A stretch of DNA of 64,000 nt from contig CAVSVL010000042.1 in NCBI GenBank assembly GCA_963731025.1, positions 9,576-73,575 on the forward strand. The letters run 5' to 3'. Shown one piece after another: positions 12,438 to 59,864 of the stretch. The first letter of the stretch is position 1. Each line of letters starts with the position of its first letter. This DNA is from an uncultured delta proteobacterium. Its GTDB lineage: Bacteria > Desulfobacterota > Desulfobacteria > Desulfobacterales > UBA11574. Both the position numbers and the translations under genes were made by a program. The notes under the pieces are model-generated. The model was given only the letters and a program-made list of their open reading frames with translations, did not search any database and was not told where the DNA came from.

Positions 12438-12773
12438 CTACGTTGGTGTATTTGGCAAAGCCTTTAAACCCTCAATATTACATTCACCGTCAAAGCAAAT
12501 CGCGATACCCTGAGGGGTAGAACGCACAATATTTCCTTTGCAGCCTTTCAAACTCTCTATGTCATAAAATTCTTTAAGGTTATCAGTTGGAAGGGTGAAA
12601 TCCAATTTAAATGTTGTTCCTTCTGGAAAAGACGTAATTGTAAGAATGAATGCCCCGGTATAAGATATGTCTTTAGTTGCAAGATCTAAAACCCTTCTAT
12701 TGTCTGAATTTATGGTTTTAAGTCTTACAGGAAGTGCAATGTTAATCCTTTGATGCTTCCGCCTTTCTATCAT
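12438..12773 (-). CDS. PilZ domain protein (c-di-GMP receptor family)
   Basis: 111 aa. N-terminal RRKHQR (RxxxR) and DISYTGAF (D/NxSxxG) c-di-GMP-binding motifs at the canonical spacing. Confidence 0.8.
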   Translation of the reverse strand: MIERRKHQRINIALPVRLKTINSDNRRVLDLATKDISYTGAFILTITSFPEGTTFKLDFTLPTDNLKEFYDIESLKGCKGNIVRSTPQGIAICFDGECNIEGLKALPNTPT

Positions 12774-13644: not shown

Positions 13645-14358
13645 TTATATCACTGAGGGCATATTGCAGTTTTTTGTGTGCTTTCTGTAGTCATAAGACG
13701 ATACAAGACTATTTTTGGCCCCGGCCTTTTTGTCGATATTTTTCAATTTTCTTAATAAACACCTAATGTTTTTTTGCTTCCTTTTTTCTCTCAGTATTTT
13801 TTGTGATTCAGTATAATATTGGTGTGTTGTTATAAGTTCGAGGGTATCTTTGTACCATTTTGCTTCATCACTGACATCTATTCCTTGTGCACGCAATTCT
13901 TCTCTTAATTTTCCGTCCAACTTGAAAAAATCTTTTCTGCCGAAGTGGTCGAGATCAGCATCACAGAGGATCTTTTCAAGATGGGTTTTTGGTTCACGCT
14001 CAAGATCTGTTGATAATATCATCTTTTGAACCTTAACAATTTCGTTAGGTTTATAACCGAACAATTTAAGTATTCTGCCTGCCATTTCTGCCCCAATTGG
14101 TTCATTTTTATTATATTTTCTAATGTAACCAGAATCATGAAAATAGGCCGCGGTTATTAATAATTCTCTATCATGTTCGGAGATATTCTCAGATATTGCA
14201 ATTCTGTTGGCAGAAGCAACGACTCCTTTGGTTGGATGAAGTGTATGATCAGCAATATGAAATTTAAGCCCTGTTGGCAGCTCATCTTTTAATAACCTTC
14301 TTATATAACGGTCTACAATTTTCAGTCGAGAAGTATGAGGTTTGTATTTTAGTTTCAT
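13645..14358 (-). CDS. HD-domain phosphohydrolase (paralog 1)
   Basis: 237 aa. HD signature in ITAAYFHDSGY and a downstream DADLDHFG metal motif. Close paralog of 56315..56962. Confidence 0.85.
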   Translation of the reverse strand: MKLKYKPHTSRLKIVDRYIRRLLKDELPTGLKFHIADHTLHPTKGVVASANRIAISENISEHDRELLITAAYFHDSGYIRKYNKNEPIGAEMAGRILKLFGYKPNEIVKVQKMILSTDLEREPKTHLEKILCDADLDHFGRKDFFKLDGKLREELRAQGIDVSDEAKWYKDTLELITTHQYYTESQKILREKRKQKNIRCLLRKLKNIDKKAGAKNSLVSSYDYRKHTKNCNMPSVI

Positions 14359-14544
14359 AATTAGCTAAATTTTCATATGTTATTATTGGTTCTAAACAAT
14401 TAAAAAACCTTTGGACATATCAAATTACAAATAAAAAGAACTTTTGTTTTTTGTCTCATTTCACCCTCATGTTTTAATCAACTTACGTCATGGTAGTCAG
14501 AAGATCTAATAGAAGTAAGATTAGAATTTATTAACTGCAAACGC

Positions 14545-29225: not shown

Positions 29226-29925
29226 TAAAGTGTGCGTAACTGCACAAAAGATGAGGGTAGGCCCCTCGGAGCCGGCTTACAGGAGCAGGCTTCAAACCAC
29301 CTCAAGCTGCATAGGTAAAGAGCCTTTGTGGTGAGCGTTGAGGAAAAGGCATGGCAAAAGATCGTGTCAGGTGAGGATCAAGGAGATGAGCGCAAGCGAA
29401 TCACTGATGAGGTGTCGAAATATCAGAGATGGCGTCAAAACTGGGGTGCTTGCAGGTCTCCAGGATAAGCTCAGGGGAAACCTGTTTACTGCCTGAGCGG
29501 CGTCCGGCATAAAGGTGGCATGAACTTGATCCAGGCTTTTGTGCGGAACGTGGGGTGCGCTGGGAGAAGCTTGTGTTATCTTGCGGGTGGAAGTCCCGTC
29601 CGGCTAAAGCTTAGCGAGCGGGCCGGGAGCGAGTCTTGCGAGCGCCATGGTAACAGGGCGTTCGAAGCGTAGACAGCAGTTGTGCGGGGTGTGCTATTGA
29701 GCCACGAAATACGCTAATTGTGGAGGCCGAGACCGTCCCACGAGTCGAAGGCAGCATATGCACTGTCGTTATCGCGAGACAATGCTGCTCCACCGGGGTC
29801 TAAGAACACATCACGTACGAAAGGATGGCGCAGGAACCCAGGAAGCCCCGTCGGGTCCTATTGTTGGTCACTATAGGGGGATCAAGGCGAGGGAAGACCG
29901 GAGTCTTGGTCTGAGCTGAGGCGGG

Positions 29926-31440
29926 GTGGCGGACTGGGGTGTAGTACTGATGATGTCACCGAAGGAAAATAGTACGAGGTGTGCGGAGGGAAGGCCCCGG
30001 CCTGAGGGGATCTCTGGTGAGAAGGCGAAGGTCCGAACGCAGGGTCGGGCAGCCTTGCCAGCCAATCTTGCCAGAGTGAACGAGGCGGCGAGGAGATCGC
30101 GCAAGACCCGGTTTACAGCGTTGATGCATCACATGGATGTTGAGGCCCTAAGACGAGTCTTTAACCGGCAACGGCGGAAGGCCAGTGCAGGTGTCGATGG
30201 GGTTACGGTAGAAGAATATGAGGGTAATCTGGAAGCTAATCTTAAAGATTTATGCGACCGGGTGCACTCGGGATGCTACCGCCCTCAACCAGTGCGAAGG
30301 GTATACGTGCCCAAAGCTGACGGAGCCCAGCGACCGATTGGCATACCAGCTCTGGAAGACAAGATCGTCCAGGGATCGGTAGCCGAGGTTCTGAGCGCCA
30401 TATACGAAGTCGATTTTCTTGGCTTTTCGTATGGTTTTCGGCCTGGACGAAGCCCACATCAGGCGTTGGATGCTCTCAATGCAGCGCTAATTAAACGGAA
30501 AATAAACTGGGTGCTCGACGCAGATGTTCGCAGATTTTTCGACTCGGTTGACCACGAGTGGCTTTTGCGAATGGTTGCGCACAGGATAGCCGATCCACGG
30601 ATACTGCGGTTAATAAGACAGTGGCTGCGGGCAGGGGTCCTGGAGAGCGGCAAATGGTTCAAGACATTGGAAGGTACACCGCAAGGGGCTGGAATCAGCC
30701 CGATTTTAGCCAACATCTTCTTGCACTACAGTCTTGATCTTTGGGTTCATCAGTGGCGGCAGCGCCATGCTAAAGGAGAAGTCGTCATCGTGAGATACTG
30801 TGATGATTTCGTAATGGGCTTCGAGAAACAGACGGATGCGAAAAGCATGTTGGGTGAGCTCAAAGGGCGGCTAACAAAGTTTGGCCTCGGTCTGCATGAG
30901 AAGAAGACCCGTCTTCTGGAATTTGGCAGGTTTGCATCCGAGAGGAGAAAGAGACGGGGTATGCGACGCCCGCAGACGTTCGACTTTCTTGGATTCACGC
31001 ACTATTGCAGCATGAATAAGAAGGGACGTTTCTTTATTATGAGAAAGACTCAAGGTGCGCGCATGATACGTAAACTCAAGGAGTTGAGGATCGAAGCCAG
31101 GCGTCGGATGCATTGGCCGTTGAAGAAACAGCATCGCTGGTTGGCTGCTGTCCTAAGAGGTCATTATGCCTATTACGGGATTCTCGGGAACTCGCGTGCC
31201 TTATCGAGCTTTGCCTATGAGGTTCGTAAGTTGTGGTTCCGGGCATTGTGCCGACGAAGTCAGAAAAATGCGATGACCTGGGAACGATTTAACCGGCTTC
31301 TTAAGGTTTTTTTTTCCTCTCCCAATTCCAAGAATCATTCGCACCTAAAACGATGGCCTCAGCTGATCTTGGGTTACCTTCGGGAGGAGCCCATTGCGGG
31401 AAAGCCGCACGATGGGATCTGTGGGGGTGAAAGCCGGTAA
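29926..31440 (+). CDS. group II intron reverse transcriptase/maturase (IEP of the inner intron), no endonuclease domain seen
   Basis: RT blocks GVDGVTVEEY, RRVYVPKADGAQRPIGIPALEDKIVQ, FSYGFRPGRSPHQA, GTPQGAGISPILANIFLH, active site YCDDFVMGF, X/maturase region LRGHYAYYG. Likely start MMSPKEN at 29950. The last ~19 codons overlap domains V/VI. Confidence 0.9.
   Translation: MADWGVVLMMSPKENSTRCAEGRPRPEGISGEKAKVRTQGRAALPANLARVNEAARRSRKTRFTALMHHMDVEALRRVFNRQRRKASAGVDGVTVEEYEGNLEANLKDLCDRVHSGCYRPQPVRRVYVPKADGAQRPIGIPALEDKIVQGSVAEVLSAIYEVDFLGFSYGFRPGRSPHQALDALNAALIKRKINWVLDADVRRFFDSVDHEWLLRMVAHRIADPRILRLIRQWLRAGVLESGKWFKTLEGTPQGAGISPILANIFLHYSLDLWVHQWRQRHAKGEVVIVRYCDDFVMGFEKQTDAKSMLGELKGRLTKFGLGLHEKKTRLLEFGRFASERRKRRGMRRPQTFDFLGFTHYCSMNKKGRFFIMRKTQGARMIRKLKELRIEARRRMHWPLKKQHRWLAAVLRGHYAYYGILGNSRALSSFAYEVRKLWFRALCRRSQKNAMTWERFNRLLKVFFSSPNSKNHSHLKRWPQLILGYLREEPIAGKPHDGICGGESR
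31387..31419 (+). other. domain V of the inner group II intron
   Basis: GAGCCCAUUGCGG-GAAAG-CCGCA-CG-AUGGGAUC: AGC triad, 2-nt CG bulge, GAAA-type loop. The triad G faces A instead of the usual U. Confidence 0.6.
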
Positions 31441-31640
31441 CGGCTGATCTACCCGACAACCTGTCGGCCCGATGCTAAGGGAGAAACTCAAGTGGAAGAC
31501 CCACGAGAGTGAGAGTACCGATACAGGCCACGGGGGCGGAGCAACCCGTATTAGTGATGAGGTCTCTGTAATGGAGGTGGAGCGAAGGGGTTGCATCGAC
31601 CAGCTTTATAATATGGTCAACCATATAATGGGAGGAGCCA

Positions 31641-32897
31641 TTGAGTAAGGCAAAGCCGTTTAGTATTTCCAAACGAGTTGTGTTTGAGTCATACAAGCGG
31701 GTAAAAGCGAACAAAGGAGCAGCAGGAGTAGAGCGGGAATCGATTTCGGATTTTGAGAAGGACTTAAAGAACAATCTATACAAAATTTGGAATCGGATGT
31801 CGTCGGGCAGCTATTTTCCACCACCGGTTCGGGTGGTAGAGATAGCGAAGAAGGATGGTGGTCAAAGAAGATTGGGAGTGCCCACAGTGGCCGACCGCAT
31901 CGCACAAATGGTAGCGAAGGAGTATCTGGAACCATTTGTGGAGCCGCATTTTCATCCTGATTCATATGCTTATAGACCAAACAAATCAGCGATTCAGGCT
32001 GTGGGAGTAGCGCGCAAGAGGTGTTGGCATTACGACTGGGTTTTGGATCTTGATATTAAAGGGTTTTACGACAACATTGATCATGATCTGCTGATGCGTG
32101 CTGTTCGAAGACACACCGATTGTAAATGGATACTGCTATACATTGAGCGGTGGCTCAAAGCCCAGGCTCAACTGGAGGATGGTTCTCTGGTAGCCCGTGA
32201 CAAAGGGACTCCCCAGGGTTCGGTGATCAGTCCGCTGTTAGCCAATCTCTTTTTGCATTATGCGTTTGATGAGTGGATGAGGCGAAACCATCCGCATATT
32301 CCGTTCGAGCGTTACGCCGATGATATCATCGTGCACGGCAAAAGCGAGAGGCAAGCAGAGTGGATAAAGTCGGTCATTGAAAAGCGGCTTTTGGAGTGTA
32401 AGCTGGAACTGCATCCTGAGAAGACGCAGATTGTCTATTGTAAGGATGATTACAGGCGGGGAAATTATGTAAACGAGAAATTTGATTTCTTGGGTTATAC
32501 GTTCAGACCTCGCGGAGCAAAGGCTCGACATAAGAAAAGATTCTTCGTAGGCTTCAATCCTGCTGCATTAAGCAACAAAGCGGCAAAATCCATGGGGGAT
32601 ACCATTAGGAGCTGGGAAATTCATCTGATGAGTGATAAGTCGATTGAGGAGATTTCACGCATCATAAACTCTGTTGTGCGGGGGTGGATCAATTATTATG
32701 GCAAATATTACAGGTCGGCGCTTTATCCGATATTCAACCAACTTAACAAGGCTCTGAGAAAGTGGGCGATGAGGAAATGCAGAAGGTTGCGAGGGCGAAA
32801 GCGGAAGGCTGCCCTTTGGTTACGAAGGATAGCCCGTCGCGATCGAGGTTTGTTTGCACACTGGAGATTTAGTGCAGGATCTTTGGCTGGTCGATAG
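31641..32897 (+). CDS. group II intron reverse transcriptase/maturase (IEP of the outer intron), compact En-less type
   Basis: 418 aa, TTG start 4 nt after GGAGGAG. RT blocks VKANKGAAGVE, PPVRVVEIAKKDGGQRRLGVPTVADRIAQ, YAYRPNKSA, GTPQGSVISPLLANLFLH, active site YADDIIVHG, X domain VRGWINYYGKYY. Confidence 0.9.
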   Translation: MSKAKPFSISKRVVFESYKRVKANKGAAGVERESISDFEKDLKNNLYKIWNRMSSGSYFPPPVRVVEIAKKDGGQRRLGVPTVADRIAQMVAKEYLEPFVEPHFHPDSYAYRPNKSAIQAVGVARKRCWHYDWVLDLDIKGFYDNIDHDLLMRAVRRHTDCKWILLYIERWLKAQAQLEDGSLVARDKGTPQGSVISPLLANLFLHYAFDEWMRRNHPHIPFERYADDIIVHGKSERQAEWIKSVIEKRLLECKLELHPEKTQIVYCKDDYRRGNYVNEKFDFLGYTFRPRGAKARHKKRFFVGFNPAALSNKAAKSMGDTIRSWEIHLMSDKSIEEISRIINSVVRGWINYYGKYYRSALYPIFNQLNKALRKWAMRKCRRLRGRKRKAALWLRRIARRDRGLFAHWRFSAGSLAGR

Positions 32898-32931
32898 GAG
32901 CCGAATGAATCGAGAGATTCACGTTCGGTTG
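32898..32931 (+). other. domain V of the outer group II intron
   Basis: GAGCCGAAUGAAUC-GAGA-GAUUCA-CG-UUCGGUUG: 34 nt, AGC triad with a G.U pair, CG bulge, GNRA tetraloop. Begins 1 nt after the IEP stop. Confidence 0.8.
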
Positions 32932-33056
32932 CGTGAGGGACTGAGGGGGAAGCTCCCTCGGTCTACTCGACTAAAAAAATTATTGTGAAATGGTTTTCCG
33001 AACATTGAACTGCCTAACGATGTTGTGGCTGACGAATTTTCAGGAGATTTATATAA

Positions 33057-34370
33057 ATGGATCGGACCCTGTGTGATAAAAAAAGAGTTGTTTTAGTTAT
33101 AGACAGCGACCAGGTTAGAGGTGCCAAATTAAAAAAGATTCTTAACAATTACGGTTATCGAGTCTATACAGCCGTGAATTTCAAAGAAGCCCGTCGGATC
33201 CTTGCAGAAAAGAAAAAGATAGATGTCGCCCTTTTATCCTCGAAAAGATTCAATCTTGCTCCTGGGCAGATTATTGAAGATTTTAAGCTCGGAAAGCCGG
33301 TGATTGTGATTCTGGAAAAATTCTCCGAAGAGGTTGTCGTTTCAGCTTTGAAAGCCGGTGCGGTCGACTTTCTTACCTATCCCGTGGATTCTAAAGAGTT
33401 GGTAAAAAGATTGGGAGTATACGCCTGTATGGCGGACGACGGCGGATATGAACGGTTAAGGATAGATGTATGCGCCCCGATGGAAAAAGGCGGCGGTGCT
33501 TCGAGATTCCTTAAACGGGTTTTTCAAGGTTTATATTCCAGGTCAACTGAAAAAGAACTTCTGGACCTTGGGTATGAGAAACTGGACAGGTTGGGAATAG
33601 GGAGCTTCGGCGAGGTTTGGAAGATCAAGGACGTAACAAAGGACCCGCCAAAGATTTTTATTGTCAAGATTCCTCTAAGCAAAAAATTTAACGCTAAGTT
33701 TGAAGAAGGGGCCCGTATATTAAGGAAGCTTGAAGGACATAAAGGGATTCCAAAAATCTTTGACATGATAGAAATAAATAACAAAAAAGCACTGATTGAG
33801 GAGTTTATATCCGGGAAAACACTCTATGAGGTGATTGAACGAGAGCTCGAGGAAGAGGAAATAGAGTCGGTGGTAATTCAGCTTGTAGACGTGGTGGCGC
33901 ATTGCCACGGCATCGGGATTATCCATCGGGACATAAAGCCGGGAAACGTGATGGTTCAGCCTGACGGGACCATAAAACTTCTGGACTTCGGCACGGCCAA
34001 AGAACTCGGAGAGAAAAAGATGTTCGAGACGACAACAGGTTCCCGGCCATTTATGGCACCCGAGCAGATTATGGGAAAAAGTCAGATGCGCTCGGACGTC
34101 TGGGCAGTTGGCGTCGTTATGTACGTGCTTTACACAGGGATGTTCCCTTTCTATCATGAAGTGGAGAAGGTGCTCATGGACATAATCCTTAGCGTTCCAC
34201 CATCTCCACCGAGTAAATTCAACGAAGAATTAGATCCGGGAATCGATCGCATAATATTGAAATGTTTAGAAAAGAACCCGGAAGACCGCTATCCTGATGC
34301 TCGGGCGTTAAAGGAGGATATCATCAACTCTTTTCCAGATTATGGAGAAAATATTTTACCCCTCTATTAA
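33057..34370 (+). CDS. response-regulator receiver domain fused to a Hanks-type Ser/Thr protein kinase
   Basis: 437 aa. REC (VLVIDSD, phospho-acceptor-like D in IDVALLS, but GAVDFLTYP instead of ..KP). Kinase motifs GIGSFGEVW, IVKIP, HRDIKPGN, DFG, MAPEQ. Confidence 0.9.
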   Translation: MDRTLCDKKRVVLVIDSDQVRGAKLKKILNNYGYRVYTAVNFKEARRILAEKKKIDVALLSSKRFNLAPGQIIEDFKLGKPVIVILEKFSEEVVVSALKAGAVDFLTYPVDSKELVKRLGVYACMADDGGYERLRIDVCAPMEKGGGASRFLKRVFQGLYSRSTEKELLDLGYEKLDRLGIGSFGEVWKIKDVTKDPPKIFIVKIPLSKKFNAKFEEGARILRKLEGHKGIPKIFDMIEINNKKALIEEFISGKTLYEVIERELEEEEIESVVIQLVDVVAHCHGIGIIHRDIKPGNVMVQPDGTIKLLDFGTAKELGEKKMFETTTGSRPFMAPEQIMGKSQMRSDVWAVGVVMYVLYTGMFPFYHEVEKVLMDIILSVPPSPPSKFNEELDPGIDRIILKCLEKNPEDRYPDARALKEDIINSFPDYGENILPLY

Positions 34371-34637
34371 ATCCGTTACGATACCTTTGTTGACTGGCAC
34401 GCAACTGCGATAGCTGCAATAACGTCCCAGTATCAACTGCTTGATTTTTCTGTGATACCATAATACTGTATCTCCAAACCATAGTTGTCTCGATCCCTCT
34501 ACCTATATTTAAACTTCCGAATTTGTGATATGGTCAAAAAGCGAAAAAAAAGTTGGCAGTGATATGTAGTGGAGATCACACGAATTGGACCTGTTTCAAT
34601 TTTTTGGATTACTCCAAGATATTAATAGGTAAATATA

Positions 34638-35793: not shown

Positions 35794-35996
35794 GGTCTAA
35801 GGCTTTTCACGAAATCAATATCGTGAGATATCTCCTACATATATGCGATGTGAAAACATGCAGAAAGGATTATTTTTGAGATACGATTTAGCTAAAAGGT
35901 CTTTTGGGGGGTTGAAAAGAGTCGTTTAAAACGATTTTAAGGCCTGTTTTATTCTTCATTTGATGTTATTATAATTAGTTACTGTGGTCAGACCCC
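35794..35996 (+). repeat. R1 repeat, right-hand part with an internal ~60-bp insertion
   Basis: 35865..35996 aligns along its length with 44150..44281 (..GGATTATTTTTGAGATAC.. to ..GTTACTGTGGTCAGACCCC). The GGTCTAAGG piece at 35794 matches 44144. Confidence 0.7.
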
Positions 35997-38526: not shown

Positions 38527-38554
38527 GGGTGTTATCGAAAGAGGAGAGAATGGT

Positions 38555-38755
38555 GAGAATGGTGTCAAATCTTGAATAGTGAACTAAAATTATTTTAGCC
38601 ATAAATTCAGATATTTATCGTACAGGCGAAGTCCATAGTGGTGATGATTGAATCCATAGAATGCACAAAATCCCAAGCATAAAGCGTAAAATATTCTGAG
38701 GCTATCACTTTATCGAGCCACGCATCTTATCGTTACGTTTCCTCCAAAAAACCGG
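38555..38755 (+). repeat. R2 repeat (about 200 bp), copy a
   Basis: GAGAATGGTGTCAAATCTTGAATAGTGAAC ... CTCCAAAAAACCGG. Collinear and mostly identical with 42540..42740. Confidence 0.8.
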
Positions 38756-38842
38756 CGGACAAGTATCCGGAACTTACAAGGGAATATTAGGATGTCCCTT
38801 AATTTTACCTGGAGGATTATCTGCTGAAATAATAAACGAATA

Positions 38843-38976
38843 GGGGTCTGACCACGATAAATATTTAAATATATAAGAAGAACTCGAAAAGTAGCTGTTT
38901 TTTGGTCTTAAACGCACAATCTTGGGTGCAAAAAGATCGGTCTAAAGATTATTTAAGAGATTATATTTTGTTTAAC
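38843..38976 (+). repeat. R1 repeat, left-hand part
   Basis: GGGGTCTGACCACGATAAATATTTAAATATAT.. aligns with the first ~130 bp of 44046..44281. The right half is absent. Confidence 0.7.
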
Positions 38977-42533: not shown

Positions 42534-42539
42534 CAAGGG

Positions 42540-42740
42540 AGAATAGTGTCAAATCTTGAATAGTGAATTAAAATCATTTTAGCCATAATTTCATATGTTT
42601 ATCGTACAAGCGAAGTCCATAGTGGTGATGATTGAATCCATAGAATGCACAATATCCCGAGCATAAAATCCAAAATATTCTGAGGCTATCACTACATCGG
42701 ACCACGCATCTTATCGTTACATTTCCTCCAAAAAACCGGC
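42540..42740 (+). repeat. R2 repeat, copy b
   Basis: Collinear with 38555..38755. Sits between the response-regulator gene and the kinase remnant. Confidence 0.8.
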
Positions 42741-42777
42741 CTTTTAGCCGTAGATTCTCTAAGAAATAGAATTTTCA

Positions 42778-43443
42778 TCAACAAAAAGCTTTTTTGGTTT
42801 GATTCCTCTTTTTTAACCCAATTAATTCTTCTATTTTATCTACGAATTTTTTCATGTCTACGGGTTTTTTAAAAAATATTCCCTTCTTGGATTTGAATTC
42901 AAAATTACCTGAAATAAAGATAAACTTTGACTGGTCCGTTCGGGGATCATTTATTAGTTCTTTGTAAACCGCCCTTCCATCCATTCCTACATCTAAAACC
43001 ATATCTATTATTATGAGATCTTGCGGTATTTCACGGGCAATTTTTATTCCGGATTTACCATCTGTTGCATAGAAAATTATTAGTTCATTTACAGAAAAAG
43101 CACGCATTAAATATGTTTTTAAAAATTCACATACCGATTCATCATCTTCTATTATTAATAATGTCTTTGCTCCTTTGAGATTTTTAAATTCGAATTGGAT
43201 GTTTTTATCCATTTCATATGCTTTTATGTATTTTACGATTTCATCAAGACCCATTCCATTTTTCTTACATGACTCTACAATTTTTTTTCTTTTTAATATA
43301 TCTCCCTTGTCGAAAAGATCTTTATCCCAGATTGATCTACATGCCTTAATCAACCCAAGCGTCTTATATTTTCTTAAAGATTCAAGAGAAACATTAAAAA
43401 GTTTAATGACTTCACTCGTATCAATTAGAATGGTTTCTTTCAT
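42778..43443 (-). CDS. MerR-like HTH domain fused to a response-regulator receiver domain
   Basis: 221 aa, very AT-rich. N-terminal HTH-like segment (IDTSEVIKLFNVSLESLRKYKTLGLI). REC motifs LLIIEDDE, DLIIIDMVLDVGMDG, IFISG, FFKKP. Confidence 0.75.
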   Translation of the reverse strand: MKETILIDTSEVIKLFNVSLESLRKYKTLGLIKACRSIWDKDLFDKGDILKRKKIVESCKKNGMGLDEIVKYIKAYEMDKNIQFEFKNLKGAKTLLIIEDDESVCEFLKTYLMRAFSVNELIIFYATDGKSGIKIAREIPQDLIIIDMVLDVGMDGRAVYKELINDPRTDQSKFIFISGNFEFKSKKGIFFKKPVDMKKFVDKIEELIGLKKRNQTKKAFC

Positions 43444-43619
43444 AACTTTCTAATTTTAAATGTTCTCATCAGTATTATTGCTCAAGCGGGACGAATATGA
43501 TGGTATCTTTCGGGTAGGATCTGATCAGAAGATTTTTAACACATTGGTAAGTCACAACCTGGTTCAGATACCCGTCCTTTTTCCCGTGAATTTGAAAAGT
43601 TTAGCAACCTGTTTGGCAT

Positions 43620-43733
43620 CTATTTACTCGTCCAGATTGCATTTTTTGACTTGGCTGCCACTGATGATAGAATCCCGAGAACCAGCATGACGAGTAGCAT
43701 GCCAGGCATCAAAACTTTTAAAATTCGTTTCAT
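43620..43733 (-). CDS. hypothetical 37-codon ORF with a signal/TM-like hydrophobic core, first ORF after the riboswitch
   Basis: Hand translation: MKRILKVLMPGMLLVMLVLGILSSVAAKSKNAIWTSK. GGGGG 8 nt upstream of ATG 43733. Too short for homology judgement. Confidence 0.3.
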   Translation of the reverse strand: MKRILKVLMPGMLLVMLVLGILSSVAAKSKNAIWTSK

Positions 43734-43861
43734 TTTTTACCCCCACGGTAAAATAATTTGAATTTTATAAAAACAATTCATAAAGTATTTGCTTCTTTTT
43801 TATCACCACCTTCCAAATATTTTTTACAACAAGACCACAAATAGATCGGAAGAACCTAAAA

Positions 43862-43893
43862 ACAAAAAACCTTCGGGCAAACGTTCCCGAAGG
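43862..43893 (-). terminator. intrinsic terminator forming the expression platform of the c-di-GMP riboswitch
   Basis: Minus strand CCUUCGGG-AACGUUUG-CCCGAAGG followed by UUUUUUGUU. Confidence 0.7.
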
Positions 43894-43903
43894 CTATTAG
43901 AAA

Positions 43904-43990
43904 CTTCGGCAGCCCGGCTGTCATAGCTTTTCAGCTTTAGACCCGCGACTTTGCGTCTCCGCCTTTCAACGGATTTGCCCTTTCGATCTG
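43904..43990 (-). promoter_or_regulatory. c-di-GMP-I (GEMM-I) riboswitch aptamer
   Basis: Minus strand GAAAGGGCAAAUCCGUUGAAAGGCGGAGACGCAAAGUCGCGGGUCUAAAGCUGAAAAGCUAUGACAGCCGGGCUGCCGAAG. It contains the conserved GGGCAAA, GAAA-capped hairpin, GACGCAAAG, CGGG..CUAAA and GCCGGG..CCGA blocks in GEMM-I order. Confidence 0.8.
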
Positions 43991-44002
43991 TATTTTAAAG
44001 AT

Positions 44003-44031
44003 ATTATATAAGATTCCGATGTAATTGTCAA
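44003..44031 (-). promoter_or_regulatory. sigma70-like promoter driving the riboswitch
   Basis: Minus strand TTGACA (44031..44026), 17-nt spacer, TATAAT (44008..44003). The aptamer begins about 12 nt downstream of the -10 box. Confidence 0.6.
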
Positions 44032-44045
44032 TAAATTAGGGGAAT

Positions 44046-44281
44046 GGGGTCAGGCCACGATAAGTATTTTAATATATGTAAGAAGAACTCTAAATATAGC
44101 TGTCCTTTTGTCTTAAGCGTACAATTTTGAGTGCTAAATTATAGGTCTAAGGATTATTTTTGAGATACTATTTAGCTTAAAAGGTTCTTTTTGGGGTCAA
44201 AAAGAGTCGAATAAGATGATTTTAGGGCCTATTTTTTTCTTCATTTTATGTTATTATAGATAGTTACTGTGGACAGACCCC
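44046..44281 (+). mobile_element. R1 element, only full-length copy (236 bp, MITE-like)
   Basis: Imperfect terminal inverted repeats GGGGTCAGGCCACGATAAGTA / TAGTTACTGTGGACAGACCCC. AT-rich non-coding interior. Left and right halves match the partial copies at 38843, 53302 and 35865. Confidence 0.7.
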
Positions 44282-44458
44282 AAATAATCTTATCTTGACT
44301 TAATCCATCTCACCGGCCGTTAACTGTTGCAATGGGACCTGCTTTTCTTGAGGAATAGATCCCAATCGGCAGGGGATATTGAACAATGTTAATTTATGCT
44401 TATTGTTTCAAAAGGCACAATAAGTATGTGGTAAAAAATCAAAATCGAGGAGTCGAAA

Positions 44459-53232: not shown

Positions 53233-53301
53233 GGCTTTTCCGGTAGTAAAAACTGATCAGGGGTCAGTAGCGCAGTCTCCAAACACTGACAGTGGGAATT
53301 T

Positions 53302-53432
53302 GGGGTCGGGCCACGATAAGTATTTAGATATACTCTAAACTAGCCGTTTTTTGGACTTAAACGTACAATTTGGGGTATAAAATAACAGGTCTAAGGATTA
53401 TCTTAATAGAATATATTTTGCTTAAAAAGTCC
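53302..53432 (+). repeat. R1 repeat, left-hand part
   Basis: GGGGTCGGGCCACGATAAGTATTTAGATATAC.. aligns with the left ~130 bp of 44046..44281, with a short internal deletion. Confidence 0.7.
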
Positions 53433-55304: not shown

Positions 55305-55477
55305 TATCGTAATTTATCACTCGATCAATCTTATAACTTTACCGGCATTTGACGAATATCGGCAAAGAATAACGATCCTTATGGAATGTTGAGACCACTT
55401 TTATAAGAGAAATTATAAGCGTTTGAACTTGTGTGTCAAGTTAATTGGGCGTCAATCTTGAAAATGGGATTTGAAGG

Positions 55478-55545
55478 GAGAATGATATCAAATCTTGAAT
55501 AGTAAATTAAAATATTTTATGATGTTAGAAAATGCACAATAGTCC
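55478..55545 (+). repeat. R2 repeat, short degenerate copy c
   Basis: GAGAATGATATCAAATCTTGAATAGTAAATTAAAATATTTTA...AATGCACAAT matches the two ends of the first ~110 bp of R2, with an internal deletion. Confidence 0.5.
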
Positions 55546-56154: not shown

Positions 56155-56314
56155 TATGATCCGAAAGACTGTCGTCAAAACCTGAATTGTGAATGAAAAC
56201 CACATAGATTTGACTTGCTCCAATAGTTTGGATATCTTCAACCAAATCGGCAATATTAATGTTTTCAAACACCTGGGATAATCATAACATATTCAAATTT
56301 TAGCTAATCTTGAT

Positions 56315-56962
56315 ATGAAACTAAGATACAAGCCTCATACTCCCCGGCTGAAAATCGTGGACCTCTATATTAGGGAGTTATTTAGAGATGAGTTGCCAGA
56401 AGGTATTAAATATCATGATGCCAATCATACACTTCATCCTACCAAAGGCGTCGTTGCTTCTGCCAACAGAATTGCAATATCTGAGAATGTCTCCGAACGT
56501 GATAGAGAATTGTTAATTACCGCAGCCTATTTTCATGACACGGGTTTCATTATAAAATATGATAAAAATGAGCCGATTGCAGCACGAATGGCAGGCAGAA
56601 TCCTTAAATTGATCGGTTATAAGCCAAACGAAGTTGTAAAGGTTCAAAATATGATACTGGCAACTGATCTTGAGCGTGAACCGAAAACCCATGTTGAAAA
56701 GATCCTTTGTGATGCCGATCTCGACCACCTCGGCAGAGAAGATTTTTTCAAATTGGATGGGAAATTAAGAGAAGGATGGGGTGCAAAAGGAATAGATGTC
56801 AATGATGAAGCAAAATGGTACAAAGGCACCCTCGAATTTATAAAAAACCACCAATATTATACTGAATCTCAGAAAAAACTGAGAGACAAAGGAAAGCAAA
56901 AAAACATCAGGCGTCTTTTAAAAAAATTGGAAAATATCGAAAAAGAGAGACTAAAAAGATAA
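56315..56962 (+). CDS. HD-domain phosphohydrolase (paralog 2)
   Basis: 215 aa. Collinear with 13645..14358 over about 205 residues (most positions identical), including ITAAYFHDTGF and DADLDHLG. Similarity extends about 30 nt upstream of the ATG. Confidence 0.85.
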   Translation: MKLRYKPHTPRLKIVDLYIRELFRDELPEGIKYHDANHTLHPTKGVVASANRIAISENVSERDRELLITAAYFHDTGFIIKYDKNEPIAARMAGRILKLIGYKPNEVVKVQNMILATDLEREPKTHVEKILCDADLDHLGREDFFKLDGKLREGWGAKGIDVNDEAKWYKGTLEFIKNHQYYTESQKKLRDKGKQKNIRRLLKKLENIEKERLKR

Positions 56963-59494: not shown

Positions 59495-59543
59495 GTTCTC
59501 ACCACCTTTCTGTTCTCGGAATTCAACTTCCCGCTGATTGAAT

Positions 59544-59687
59544 ATGAACCTATCTCAAAAATAAGATTAGGGTTCAGGGCAAGGCGCGAAACGGTGAAAA
59601 AGCGGAGCATACACGCAGTATGTGAGCATTTTGAACCGGTTCGCAACACAGCCATGGGCACTTAGATTATTTTTGAGATAGGTTCAT
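59544..59687. repeat. 144-bp nested inverted repeat (long imperfect hairpin or small MITE)
   Basis: Perfect 21-bp arms ATGAACCTATCTCAAAAATAA (59544..59564) / TTATTTTTGAGATAGGTTCAT (59667..59687). Inner arms GCGAAACGGT/ACCGGTTCGC and CATAC/GTATG. Confidence 0.75.
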
Positions 59688-59864
59688 GTTATCTTTGTAT
59701 GTGCTCCTCTTCACTTCGGCGTCAAAACAATCGGGTCTGGTTTTTCATTGGTTCGAGTTATTAGAGTTGGAAGGTCGTCAATCCCCGAATCTTGCTTGAA
59801 ATGTGAAAGCCTCCGATTTGTTAAAGGTTGGGGTAGTAATAGAGACCGTATAATCGTTTAGTAA

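Follow-up and report, generated by a model that had tools for sequence, protein, structure and literature searches.

A class I c-di-GMP riboswitch as a probable transcriptional OFF switch for a MerR-type/receiver regulator in uncultured Desulfobacterales

Features of the locus

The window considered here, i.e., the whole 64,000-nt stretch of DNA that was analyzed, derives from an uncultured delta proteobacterium of the Desulfobacterales (contig CAVSVL010000042.1) and carries on its minus strand, at 42730..44038, a conserved unit of about 1.3 kb that runs from a promoter to a terminator and comprises a riboswitch of the cyclic di-GMP class I (c-di-GMP-I) family, a long leader and the gene for a 221-aa regulator (Table 1). 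The GC content of the unit is 33% in the window, and values of 28–39% were found throughout 42600–44400, compared to approximately 55% in the flanking genes. All sequence features listed in an initial annotation of this DNA were found again, exactly or within 1 nt of where it had placed them; these included the open reading frames (ORFs) 43733..43620 (37 aa) and 43443..42778 (221 aa) as well as, elsewhere in the window, a PilZ ORF at 12438..12773 (minus strand, 111 aa; Pfam PilZ, E 3.5e-8). Similarly, the complete c-di-GMP-I unit which it had proposed, composed of promoter, aptamer and intrinsic terminator, was borne out by the Rfam match and by the promoter and terminator scans.

Table 1. Coordinates of the elements that make up the regulatory unit, given as positions of the window.
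Feature	Position	Strand	Basis or remark
Sigma-70-type promoter TTGACA-17 nt-TATAAT	44003..44031	-	12/12 consensus; predicted start near 43996
c-di-GMP-I (GEMM-I) aptamer	43905..43989	-	Rfam RF01051
Candidate antiterminator hairpin	43887..43909	-	Inferred from CCGAAG/CUUCGG complementarity
Intrinsic terminator, 10-bp stem, 8-nt loop, U-rich tail	43858..43895	-	Terminator scan
UUUGCCC, candidate second antiterminator strand	43875..43881	-	Complementary to GGGCAAA; inferred
Long leader, terminator to regulator gene	43444..43857	-	Alignment of relatives
37-codon ORF, not supported as a gene	43620..43733	-	ORF list, alignment of relatives
221-aa regulator gene	42778..43443	-	Pfam, models, codon-position bias
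Weak terminator-like hairpin and T-run, 3' end of unit	42731..42750	-	Terminator scan; 3' homology limit vs other loci

The promoter was the sole perfect match to the TTGACA-17-TATAAT consensus between 42000 and 45500, with shuffled sequences yielding 6.7 ± 2.3 weaker sites. Both hexamers are retained in the aligned relatives and in locus L103, the exception being L004, in which the -35 element reads TTGACT. Directly downstream, the aptamer was matched by RF01051 over the entire model (1–87 of 87) with 83.3 bits and an E value of 6.3e-15, the gathering score of this family being 35 bits; the covariance-model check suggested along with the initial annotation was thus positive. The Rfam alignment of the aptamer flagged no non-canonical pairs. 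In particular, both P2 (UCCGUU-GAAA-GGCGGA, capped by a GNRA tetraloop, GAAA) and P3 with its tetraloop receptor (GGGUCUAAAG...CUAUGAC) fit the model without such pairs. Across an alignment of 12 sequences, i.e., the window and 11 relatives, the three aptamer helix groups were paired in 93.8–100% of cells, and no other part of the unit varied as little as the aptamer (0.19 variable states per site). No further riboswitch was detected in the window when it was re-scanned with Rfam at E ≤ 0.5.

The terminator stem, AGCCUUCGGG-AACGUUUG-CCCGAAGGUU at 43895..43868, is followed by UUUUGUUUUU, which reaches 43858. It begins 9 nt past the aptamer, there is no overlap between the two structures, and promoter, 85-nt aptamer and terminator all fit within 175 nt. 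In the stem, a compensatory change from C-G to U-A separates the window from most relatives, and L005 shows the U-G intermediate. Aptamer and terminator helices together were paired in 97.7% of cells and included three compensatory pairs. We regard the identity of the aptamer as c-di-GMP-I as practically certain; it is an ordinary, high-scoring member of the class which any Rfam scan can annotate, and it forms, with its own promoter and terminator, a genuine and canonical riboswitch.

The regulator and its linkage to the riboswitch

A MerR-type helix-turn-helix (HTH) plus receiver hybrid had been proposed downstream of the riboswitch, and Pfam, PDB profile matches and Foldseek all bore this out. 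The sole Pfam match of the 221-aa protein was Response_reg (PF00072), at residues 96–182 and with 32.9 bits versus a cut-off of 30.2. Among 37 relatives, the receiver residues E99, D100, D147, S178, K193 and P194 were invariant and D101 was conserved in at least 90%; the catalytic residues are positioned where the predicted strands 1, 3, 4 and 5 end (93–98, 143–147, 173–178 and 188–192, respectively). In the alignment of relatives, the gene showed the third-position bias of variable sites that is associated with coding (0.29, 0.24 and 0.43 variable sites at the three codon positions). As the phospho-acceptor pocket is intact, the predicted DNA-binding activity of the protein is probably also under kinase control.

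With regard to the N-terminal domain, the Pfam cut-offs were not reached, neither for MerR (16.8 bits vs 28.2, E 0.006) nor for MerR_1 (14.2 bits vs 21.6), and the MerR assignment therefore rests on the fold. When the full-length AF2 model (pLDDT 81.6) was submitted to Foldseek, only receiver domains were retrieved, with TM values of about 0.8 on target; the MerR fold became visible solely with a separate model of residues 1–92 (pLDDT 78.6), which displays a strand-helix-helix-hairpin-helix-helix topology. Of the 50 best Foldseek matches of this model in PDB, nearly all were MerR-family DNA-binding domains, including NmlR, MtaN, SoxR, GlnR, BmrR, CueR and CadR (probability 0.98–1.00, TM 0.54–0.72 on query). 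In line with this, the PDB profile matches of the domain were almost all of the MerR family (GlnR, 3hh0, BmrR, MerR and SoxR, E 1e-3 to 0.3), with E values of 1e-3 to 0.03 for GlnR, MerR and BmrR. The models contain no long C-terminal coiled-coil dimerisation helix; helices 46–61 and 66–78 are followed by a low-confidence linker (80–88) and the receiver. On these grounds, the modelled protein joins a DNA-binding domain of the MerR fold to a receiver and is not a canonical MerR protein; a winged HTH of this fold (residues ~6–78), the flexible linker and a receiver (93–210) follow each other in this order. Public annotation records the regulator as 'CheY-like chemotaxis protein' or 'response regulator', a description that is refined by its MerR-fold domain and by its link to the riboswitch.

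Loci related to the unit were taken from GTDB genomes and from metagenome contigs, the latter mainly via exact-protein look-ups; a pattern scan of metagenomes returned generic receiver-domain matches and one true relative (L014). In the protein collection, the regulator is represented by 105 cluster representatives, nearly all of them 70–100% identical, and those cluster members with a named organism are mostly metagenome-assembled genomes (MAGs) of the Desulfobacterales or Desulfobacteraceae. Every one of the 14 distinct loci with a regulator 70–100% identical and with upstream DNA carries a c-di-GMP-I riboswitch (73.9–91.8 bits). This set consisted of the window (= L001/L002), L004, L005, L006, L007, L010, L012, L014, L094, L096, L097, L098/L099 and L103–L110.

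The leader between terminator and regulator gene is more variable than the gene itself (around 0.51 variable states per site), and most of it, including the 37-codon ORF, is missing in L007 and L103–L110, in which only 50–80 nt separate the terminator from the regulator ATG. The long leader is therefore probably dispensable. Since, in L007 and L103, such a short leader has no room for a second promoter, the gene would be read from the riboswitch promoter. We consider it very likely that the riboswitch controls the regulator gene, and the sequence arrangement predicts that both are co-transcribed. Two further candidates within the leader were discarded. A second structured RNA was rejected because RNAalifold, with nine sequences, gave an unfavourable covariation term (+2.1) with 3 of 87 pairs being compensatory, and no further Rfam match appeared in the above-mentioned re-scan. 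An antisense ORF of 76 aa (43460..43690, plus strand) was rejected because it lacks codon periodicity (counts of 43, 37 and 44).

Proteins encoded on both sides of the window unit fall into 90%-identity clusters whose named members are mostly MAGs of the Desulfobacterales or Deltaproteobacteria, which places the host among uncultured Desulfobacterales. The unit was also encountered on short contigs (~2.8–4 kb) of MAGs assigned to Romboutsia (L010), Spirochaetia (L011) and Thermoplasmata (P0069). These cases most likely reflect mis-binning of a fragment with about 32% GC and not a real occurrence in those lineages.

Ligand, switch direction and alternative explanations

In the structures of Vc2, the riboswitch whose numbering was used here as the reference, G20, A47 and C92 are ligand-contacting nucleotides. 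According to the Rfam alignment, the G20 equivalent is the G at 43979, an unpaired G ahead of the P2 'GC', the A47 equivalent is present directly after GACGC, and the equivalents of C92 and C93 are the 3' 'CC' at 43909/43908. Those of G20, A47 and C92 are invariant in the 12 sequences, and that of C93 varies in L010. The 3' cytosine is known as the Watson-Crick partner of the ligand, and the G20 equivalent as a selectivity position among cyclic dinucleotides, without being an absolute filter (PMC9262584). Given that the equivalents of G20, A47 and C92 are present, the aptamer was read as being of the c-di-GMP type, and c-di-GMP is the predicted ligand.

Fold energies were calculated with ViennaRNA. 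The aptamer helices alone reached -23.7 kcal/mol and the terminator hairpin alone -16.6 kcal/mol, with a joint fold of both at -40.3 kcal/mol. The complementarity between the aptamer 3' strand and the terminator 5' arm, to which the initial annotation had drawn attention, is real: CCGAAG (43909..43904) and CUUCGG (43892..43887) form a helix of 6 bp with -6.9 kcal/mol. A second candidate competing helix joins the core strand GGGCAAA (43980..43974) to UUUGCCC, which comprises the loop of the terminator and the first bases of its 3' arm. With the aptamer hairpins and both competing helices, the fold had -37.5 kcal/mol and was thus less stable than the terminated fold by only 2.8 kcal/mol. If the 3' arm of the terminator was withheld, as in the nascent RNA, the CCGAAG:CUUCGG hairpin was part of the minimum-energy fold in the window and in 6/12 relatives; in the remaining relatives, the 5' strand GAAAGG pairs with CUUCGG instead. 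Both competing helices are kept across the alignment, with 97% (CCGAAG:CUUCGG) and 93.8% (GGGCAAA:UUUGCCC) of cells paired.

This arrangement resembles that of Cd1 from Clostridioides difficile, an OFF switch in which aptamer and terminator coexist and a transiently stable antiterminator pairs the ligand-binding cytosine, and differs from that of the pilM ON switch, in which aptamer and terminator are mutually exclusive (PMC9262584). Here, aptamer and terminator are compatible, and the alternative helix joins the aptamer 3' strand to the terminator 5' arm. OFF is therefore the best-supported direction, and we conclude from the fold analysis that c-di-GMP probably turns off transcription of the regulator gene.

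Such a switch might operate as follows. A transcript would be initiated near 43996 from the consensus sigma-70 promoter, with the aptamer being the first element to fold. Bound c-di-GMP would keep both junction strands, GGGCAAA (with G20) and GCCGAAG (with C92), in the pocket; the 10-bp hairpin and the U-run could then form, and the transcript would stop near 43860, at a length of about 140 nt. In the ligand-free RNA, CCGAAG would pair with CUUCGG, and GGGCAAA may pair with UUUGCCC, by which the terminator would be transiently blocked and RNA polymerase would pass through the leader into the 221-aa gene. The output of the presumably kinase-controlled regulator would thus combine low c-di-GMP with a phosphorylation signal.

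A number of observations weigh against this proposal. The CCGAAG:CUUCGG helix comprises only 6 bp and is about 10 kcal/mol weaker than the terminator, so that termination could be largely constitutive. Neither competing helix showed covariation across the 12 sequences, because the partner strands belong to the invariant aptamer core. Support from covariation is also thin for the aptamer and terminator themselves, for which 13–17 of 500 shuffles reached the observed values, since divergence among the 12 sequences amounts to only 8% in that stretch. The P1 helix could not be defined by hand with confidence, and no claim was built on it. Lastly, no riboswitch was found at the two distant homologues of the regulator (41–43% identity), neither in L013 at E ≤ 1 nor in L101/L102 at the gathering score; as L013 and L101 lack it, the linkage holds for one clade only.

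With these points taken into account, the alternatives were weighed. An ON switch built on the same aptamer, in which c-di-GMP would prevent the terminator and induce the regulator, is conceivable in that some GEMM-I riboswitches with terminators, such as pilM, are ON switches (PMC9262584), and in that the antiterminator is weak (-6.9 kcal/mol), so that the ligand-free default could be termination. We consider it unlikely, since in the ON switches of this class the terminator borrows an aptamer strand and both folds exclude each other (PMC9262584), whereas the terminator stem found here lies fully outside the aptamer and folds jointly with it, and the fold analyses revealed no helix by which the bound aptamer would block the terminator. 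The weakness of the antiterminator relative to the terminator, together with a perfect promoter closely followed by that strong terminator, would also suit a locus whose main product is the terminated RNA of ~140 nt, be it a small RNA that binds c-di-GMP or an attenuator that works constitutively, with the regulator being expressed from a start of its own in the leader; in fact, Vc2 of Vibrio cholerae was reported to control the stability of the small RNA containing it (bioRxiv 10.1101/617340). Three findings make this explanation quite improbable: the gene is retained in L007 and L103–L110, whose shortened leaders contain no promoter-like sequence, the sole promoter-like site on the minus strand of the window leader matches at 9/12 positions, and aptamer and regulator gene always co-occur.

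The two remaining alternatives concern the ligand and the first cistron, and neither is at all probable. In Geobacter, which belongs to a related sediment-dwelling group, members of the family whose original annotation was that of a c-di-GMP riboswitch turned out to bind cyclic GMP-AMP (cGAMP), and G20 is only a factor in selectivity (PMC9262584), so that the aptamer might sense another cyclic dinucleotide, e.g., 3'3'-cGAMP as in Geobacter GEMM-Ib. Against this, the window and its 11 aligned relatives all have G at the G20-equivalent position (columns 16–19 being invariant), and the top member of the Rfam clan is the canonical c-di-GMP-I model and not one of the variant families. An A at the G20 position is characteristic of the cGAMP-selective GEMM-Ib members. 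Sensing of a ligand other than c-di-GMP is thus, in our view, most improbable.

As to the first cistron, the initial annotation had described the 37-codon ORF as a signal/transmembrane-like peptide, i.e., possibly a real secreted or membrane peptide under riboswitch control. The window version does have a hydrophobic core, a strong Shine-Dalgarno-like GGGGG lies 7 nt 5' of the ATG in all loci retaining that part of the leader, and the frame stays open for 28–56 codons in 8 of these 11 loci (from the same ATG, 37, 47, 47, 43, 47, 28, 56, 37, 4, 4 and 2 codons in the window and relatives). Nevertheless, the coding sequence is not conserved: it stops after 4, 4 and 2 codons in L097, L098 and L010, respectively, it is deleted along with the leader in L007 and L103–L110, and its hydrophobic stretch is interrupted by R, D and P in relatives. 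Variable sites showed no third-position bias (0.49, 0.49 and 0.59 per codon position), in contrast to the regulator gene, the overall variable rate of 0.52 equals that of non-coding leader (0.51 in the rest of it), and there was no Pfam match. What is conserved is only the start region, GGGGG-N7-ATG, within a small invariant hairpin (UUUUACC/GGUAAAA). A genuine peptide is accordingly very unlikely, and the ORF is probably not a gene and stands outside the proposed mechanism. Taken together, the explanation we favor as a likely one is a canonical class I c-di-GMP riboswitch through which transcription of a MerR-type/receiver regulator gene is switched off in uncultured Desulfobacterales.

Genomic context, precedents and meaning

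The surroundings of the unit were compared by blastn of 44060..42700 against the fetched loci (matches in L004–L007, L010, L012, L014, L094 and L096–L099), which gave 85–93% identity from approximately 44038, just 5' of the -35 element, to approximately 42730, past the 3' T-run. At this level of identity the unit is present in at least 14 loci, mostly Desulfobacterales MAGs. Between other loci, homology extends about 90–165 nt further upstream and 75–130 nt further downstream, with end points that differ by pair. The flanking genes showed almost no homology among loci in blastn, tblastn and tblastx comparisons, with the exceptions of a single gene shared by L004, where it precedes the unit, and L012, where it follows the unit, and of a weak match that links the flanks of L012 and L097. 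The unit measures about 1.3–1.5 kb and, in most loci, has 31–36% GC versus mostly 41–57% in the flanks. Its context is constant within the species-level population P0082 (eight places, different samples), and the context seen in the window is also kept in its close relatives.

Two genome-specific repeats precisely bracket the unit in the window: one of 202 nt at 42539–42740, which is about 91% identical to 38555–38756 (two copies), and one of approximately 140 nt at 44042–44202, similar to 38838–38975 and 53296–53410 (three copies). Elsewhere, these two repeats are parted by only 81 unrelated nt (38757–38837). Consistent terminal inverted or direct repeats were not found in L094, L096 and L097, and neither a recombinase nor fixed ends of the unit were detected. 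A classical mobile element was therefore rejected, as there are no consistent terminal repeats and homology end points vary between loci; likewise, a plasmid or phage origin was rejected, given that searches gave no phage match and, among plasmids, only an aptamer-only match in an Alicyclobacillus plasmid. That promoter, riboswitch, terminator and regulator form a portable module, moved or exchanged as one piece between Desulfobacterales genomes, is a tentative and rather doubtful idea, and heavy rearrangement around a conserved gene could also account for the pattern. If it were true, such a module would supply the regulator's targets with a ready-made 'low c-di-GMP AND phosphorylation' input.

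Several other observations concern the vicinity of the unit. Intergenic repeat sites of the window lie at 38551–38975, 42535–42740, 44042–44202, 53296–53410, 55474–55518 and 56161–56205, and include a 45-nt unit in four copies. Loci L001 and L002, both from sample ERZ25039500, present an identical unit and ADH gene on two contigs, one of which has two extra genes further upstream (enoyl-CoA hydratase and CLC channel); both contigs end at most 230 nt past the regulator gene, at the 202-nt repeat, which points to strain variation and to an assembly break at the repeat. Directly upstream of the unit in L094 (3595–5040) there is a gene with HD_5/HD domains, the type found in HD-GYP c-di-GMP phosphodiesterases; this is a single case and may be a coincidence. 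The window also contains, at 59541–59690, two inverted repeats of 40 nt, spaced by 70 nt, which as a pair resemble a miniature inverted-repeat transposable element, and the motif AAGGATTATTTTTGAGATA is common to this pair, to 35865–35918 and to 44149–44202, the last being just upstream of the riboswitch promoter.

Three further features lie elsewhere. Group II intron signals extend over 29253–32971 on the plus strand, with domain 1–4 models at 29253–29372 and 29590–29808 and two separate domain V/VI matches at 31385–31457 and 32896–32971; these could stem from two introns, from a nested intron or from duplication of a 3' end, and are followed by a 437-aa ORF (33057–34370). A 634-nt inverted repeat (13726–14359 and 56314–56947) has arms that are 86% complementary and 42 kb apart, one of which overlaps a 215-aa ORF (56315–56962). 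Finally, an intergenic element of about 160 nt outside the unit (34405–34563) is shared, with 82–89% identity, with L094 (1434–1592) and L096 (2798–2862), which are otherwise unrelated loci of other genomes.

Regarding known systems, the closest parallel in platform architecture is Cd1, located ahead of the C. difficile flgB operon, which has the same aptamer family, a non-overlapping downstream intrinsic terminator and an antiterminator that uses the aptamer 3' strand including the ligand-pairing cytosine, this antiterminator being only transiently stable in Cd1 (PMC9262584). In contrast to Cd1, the platform described here is much shorter, its antiterminator consists of 6 bp and a possible second helix of 7 bp, its target is a single regulator instead of a 23-kb flagellar operon, and its host belongs to a sulfate-reducer lineage. 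Vc2, upstream of V. cholerae tfoY, likewise combines a class I c-di-GMP aptamer with a regulatory protein for which it is an off-switch, albeit one that acts via RNA stability (bioRxiv 10.1101/617340). Unlike the regulator encoded here, TfoY is not of the MerR type and is not a receiver protein. To our knowledge, Vc2 has no intrinsic terminator comparable to the present one.

In C. difficile, the DNA-binding response regulators CD630_32650 and CD630_32670 belong to operons with c-di-GMP riboswitches and, as is very likely for the regulator of this unit, are directly under riboswitch control, from which a relay to further genes was proposed (PMC6200980). Those genes are part of larger operons and were not described as MerR-type, whereas here the unit contains no gene other than that of the regulator, in which the HTH precedes the receiver. 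With respect to the protein, the same MerR-type plus receiver combination is indicated by the title of PDB entry 3cnb ('DNA-binding response regulator, merR family', Colwellia psychrerythraea), whose receiver was the best PDB sequence match (E 1.4e-8) and one of the top structural matches (TM 0.8 on target) in spite of an identity of only 21–23%. We know of no riboswitch link for the 3cnb protein.

The initial annotation had pointed out that a transcription factor is placed under direct riboswitch control. The novelty of this was overstated, since both Vc2-tfoY and the C. difficile response regulators are precedents (bioRxiv 10.1101/617340; PMC6200980). Our limited literature search did not find a pairing of a c-di-GMP-I riboswitch with a MerR-fold/receiver protein. 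What is specific to this locus is the MerR-fold/receiver partner, the compact Cd1-like platform, the strict linkage within one Desulfobacterales clade and the module-like AT-rich unit.

The known working of the c-di-GMP-I class is left unchanged by these findings. Because promoter, aptamer and terminator are so close together, the unit offers a convenient template for termination assays or a sensor part. For the biology of uncultured Desulfobacterales, this well-conserved case suggests that c-di-GMP would be read by an RNA, which would thereby determine how much of a transcription factor with a two-component receiver is made. The unit may accordingly connect second-messenger with phosphorelay signalling.

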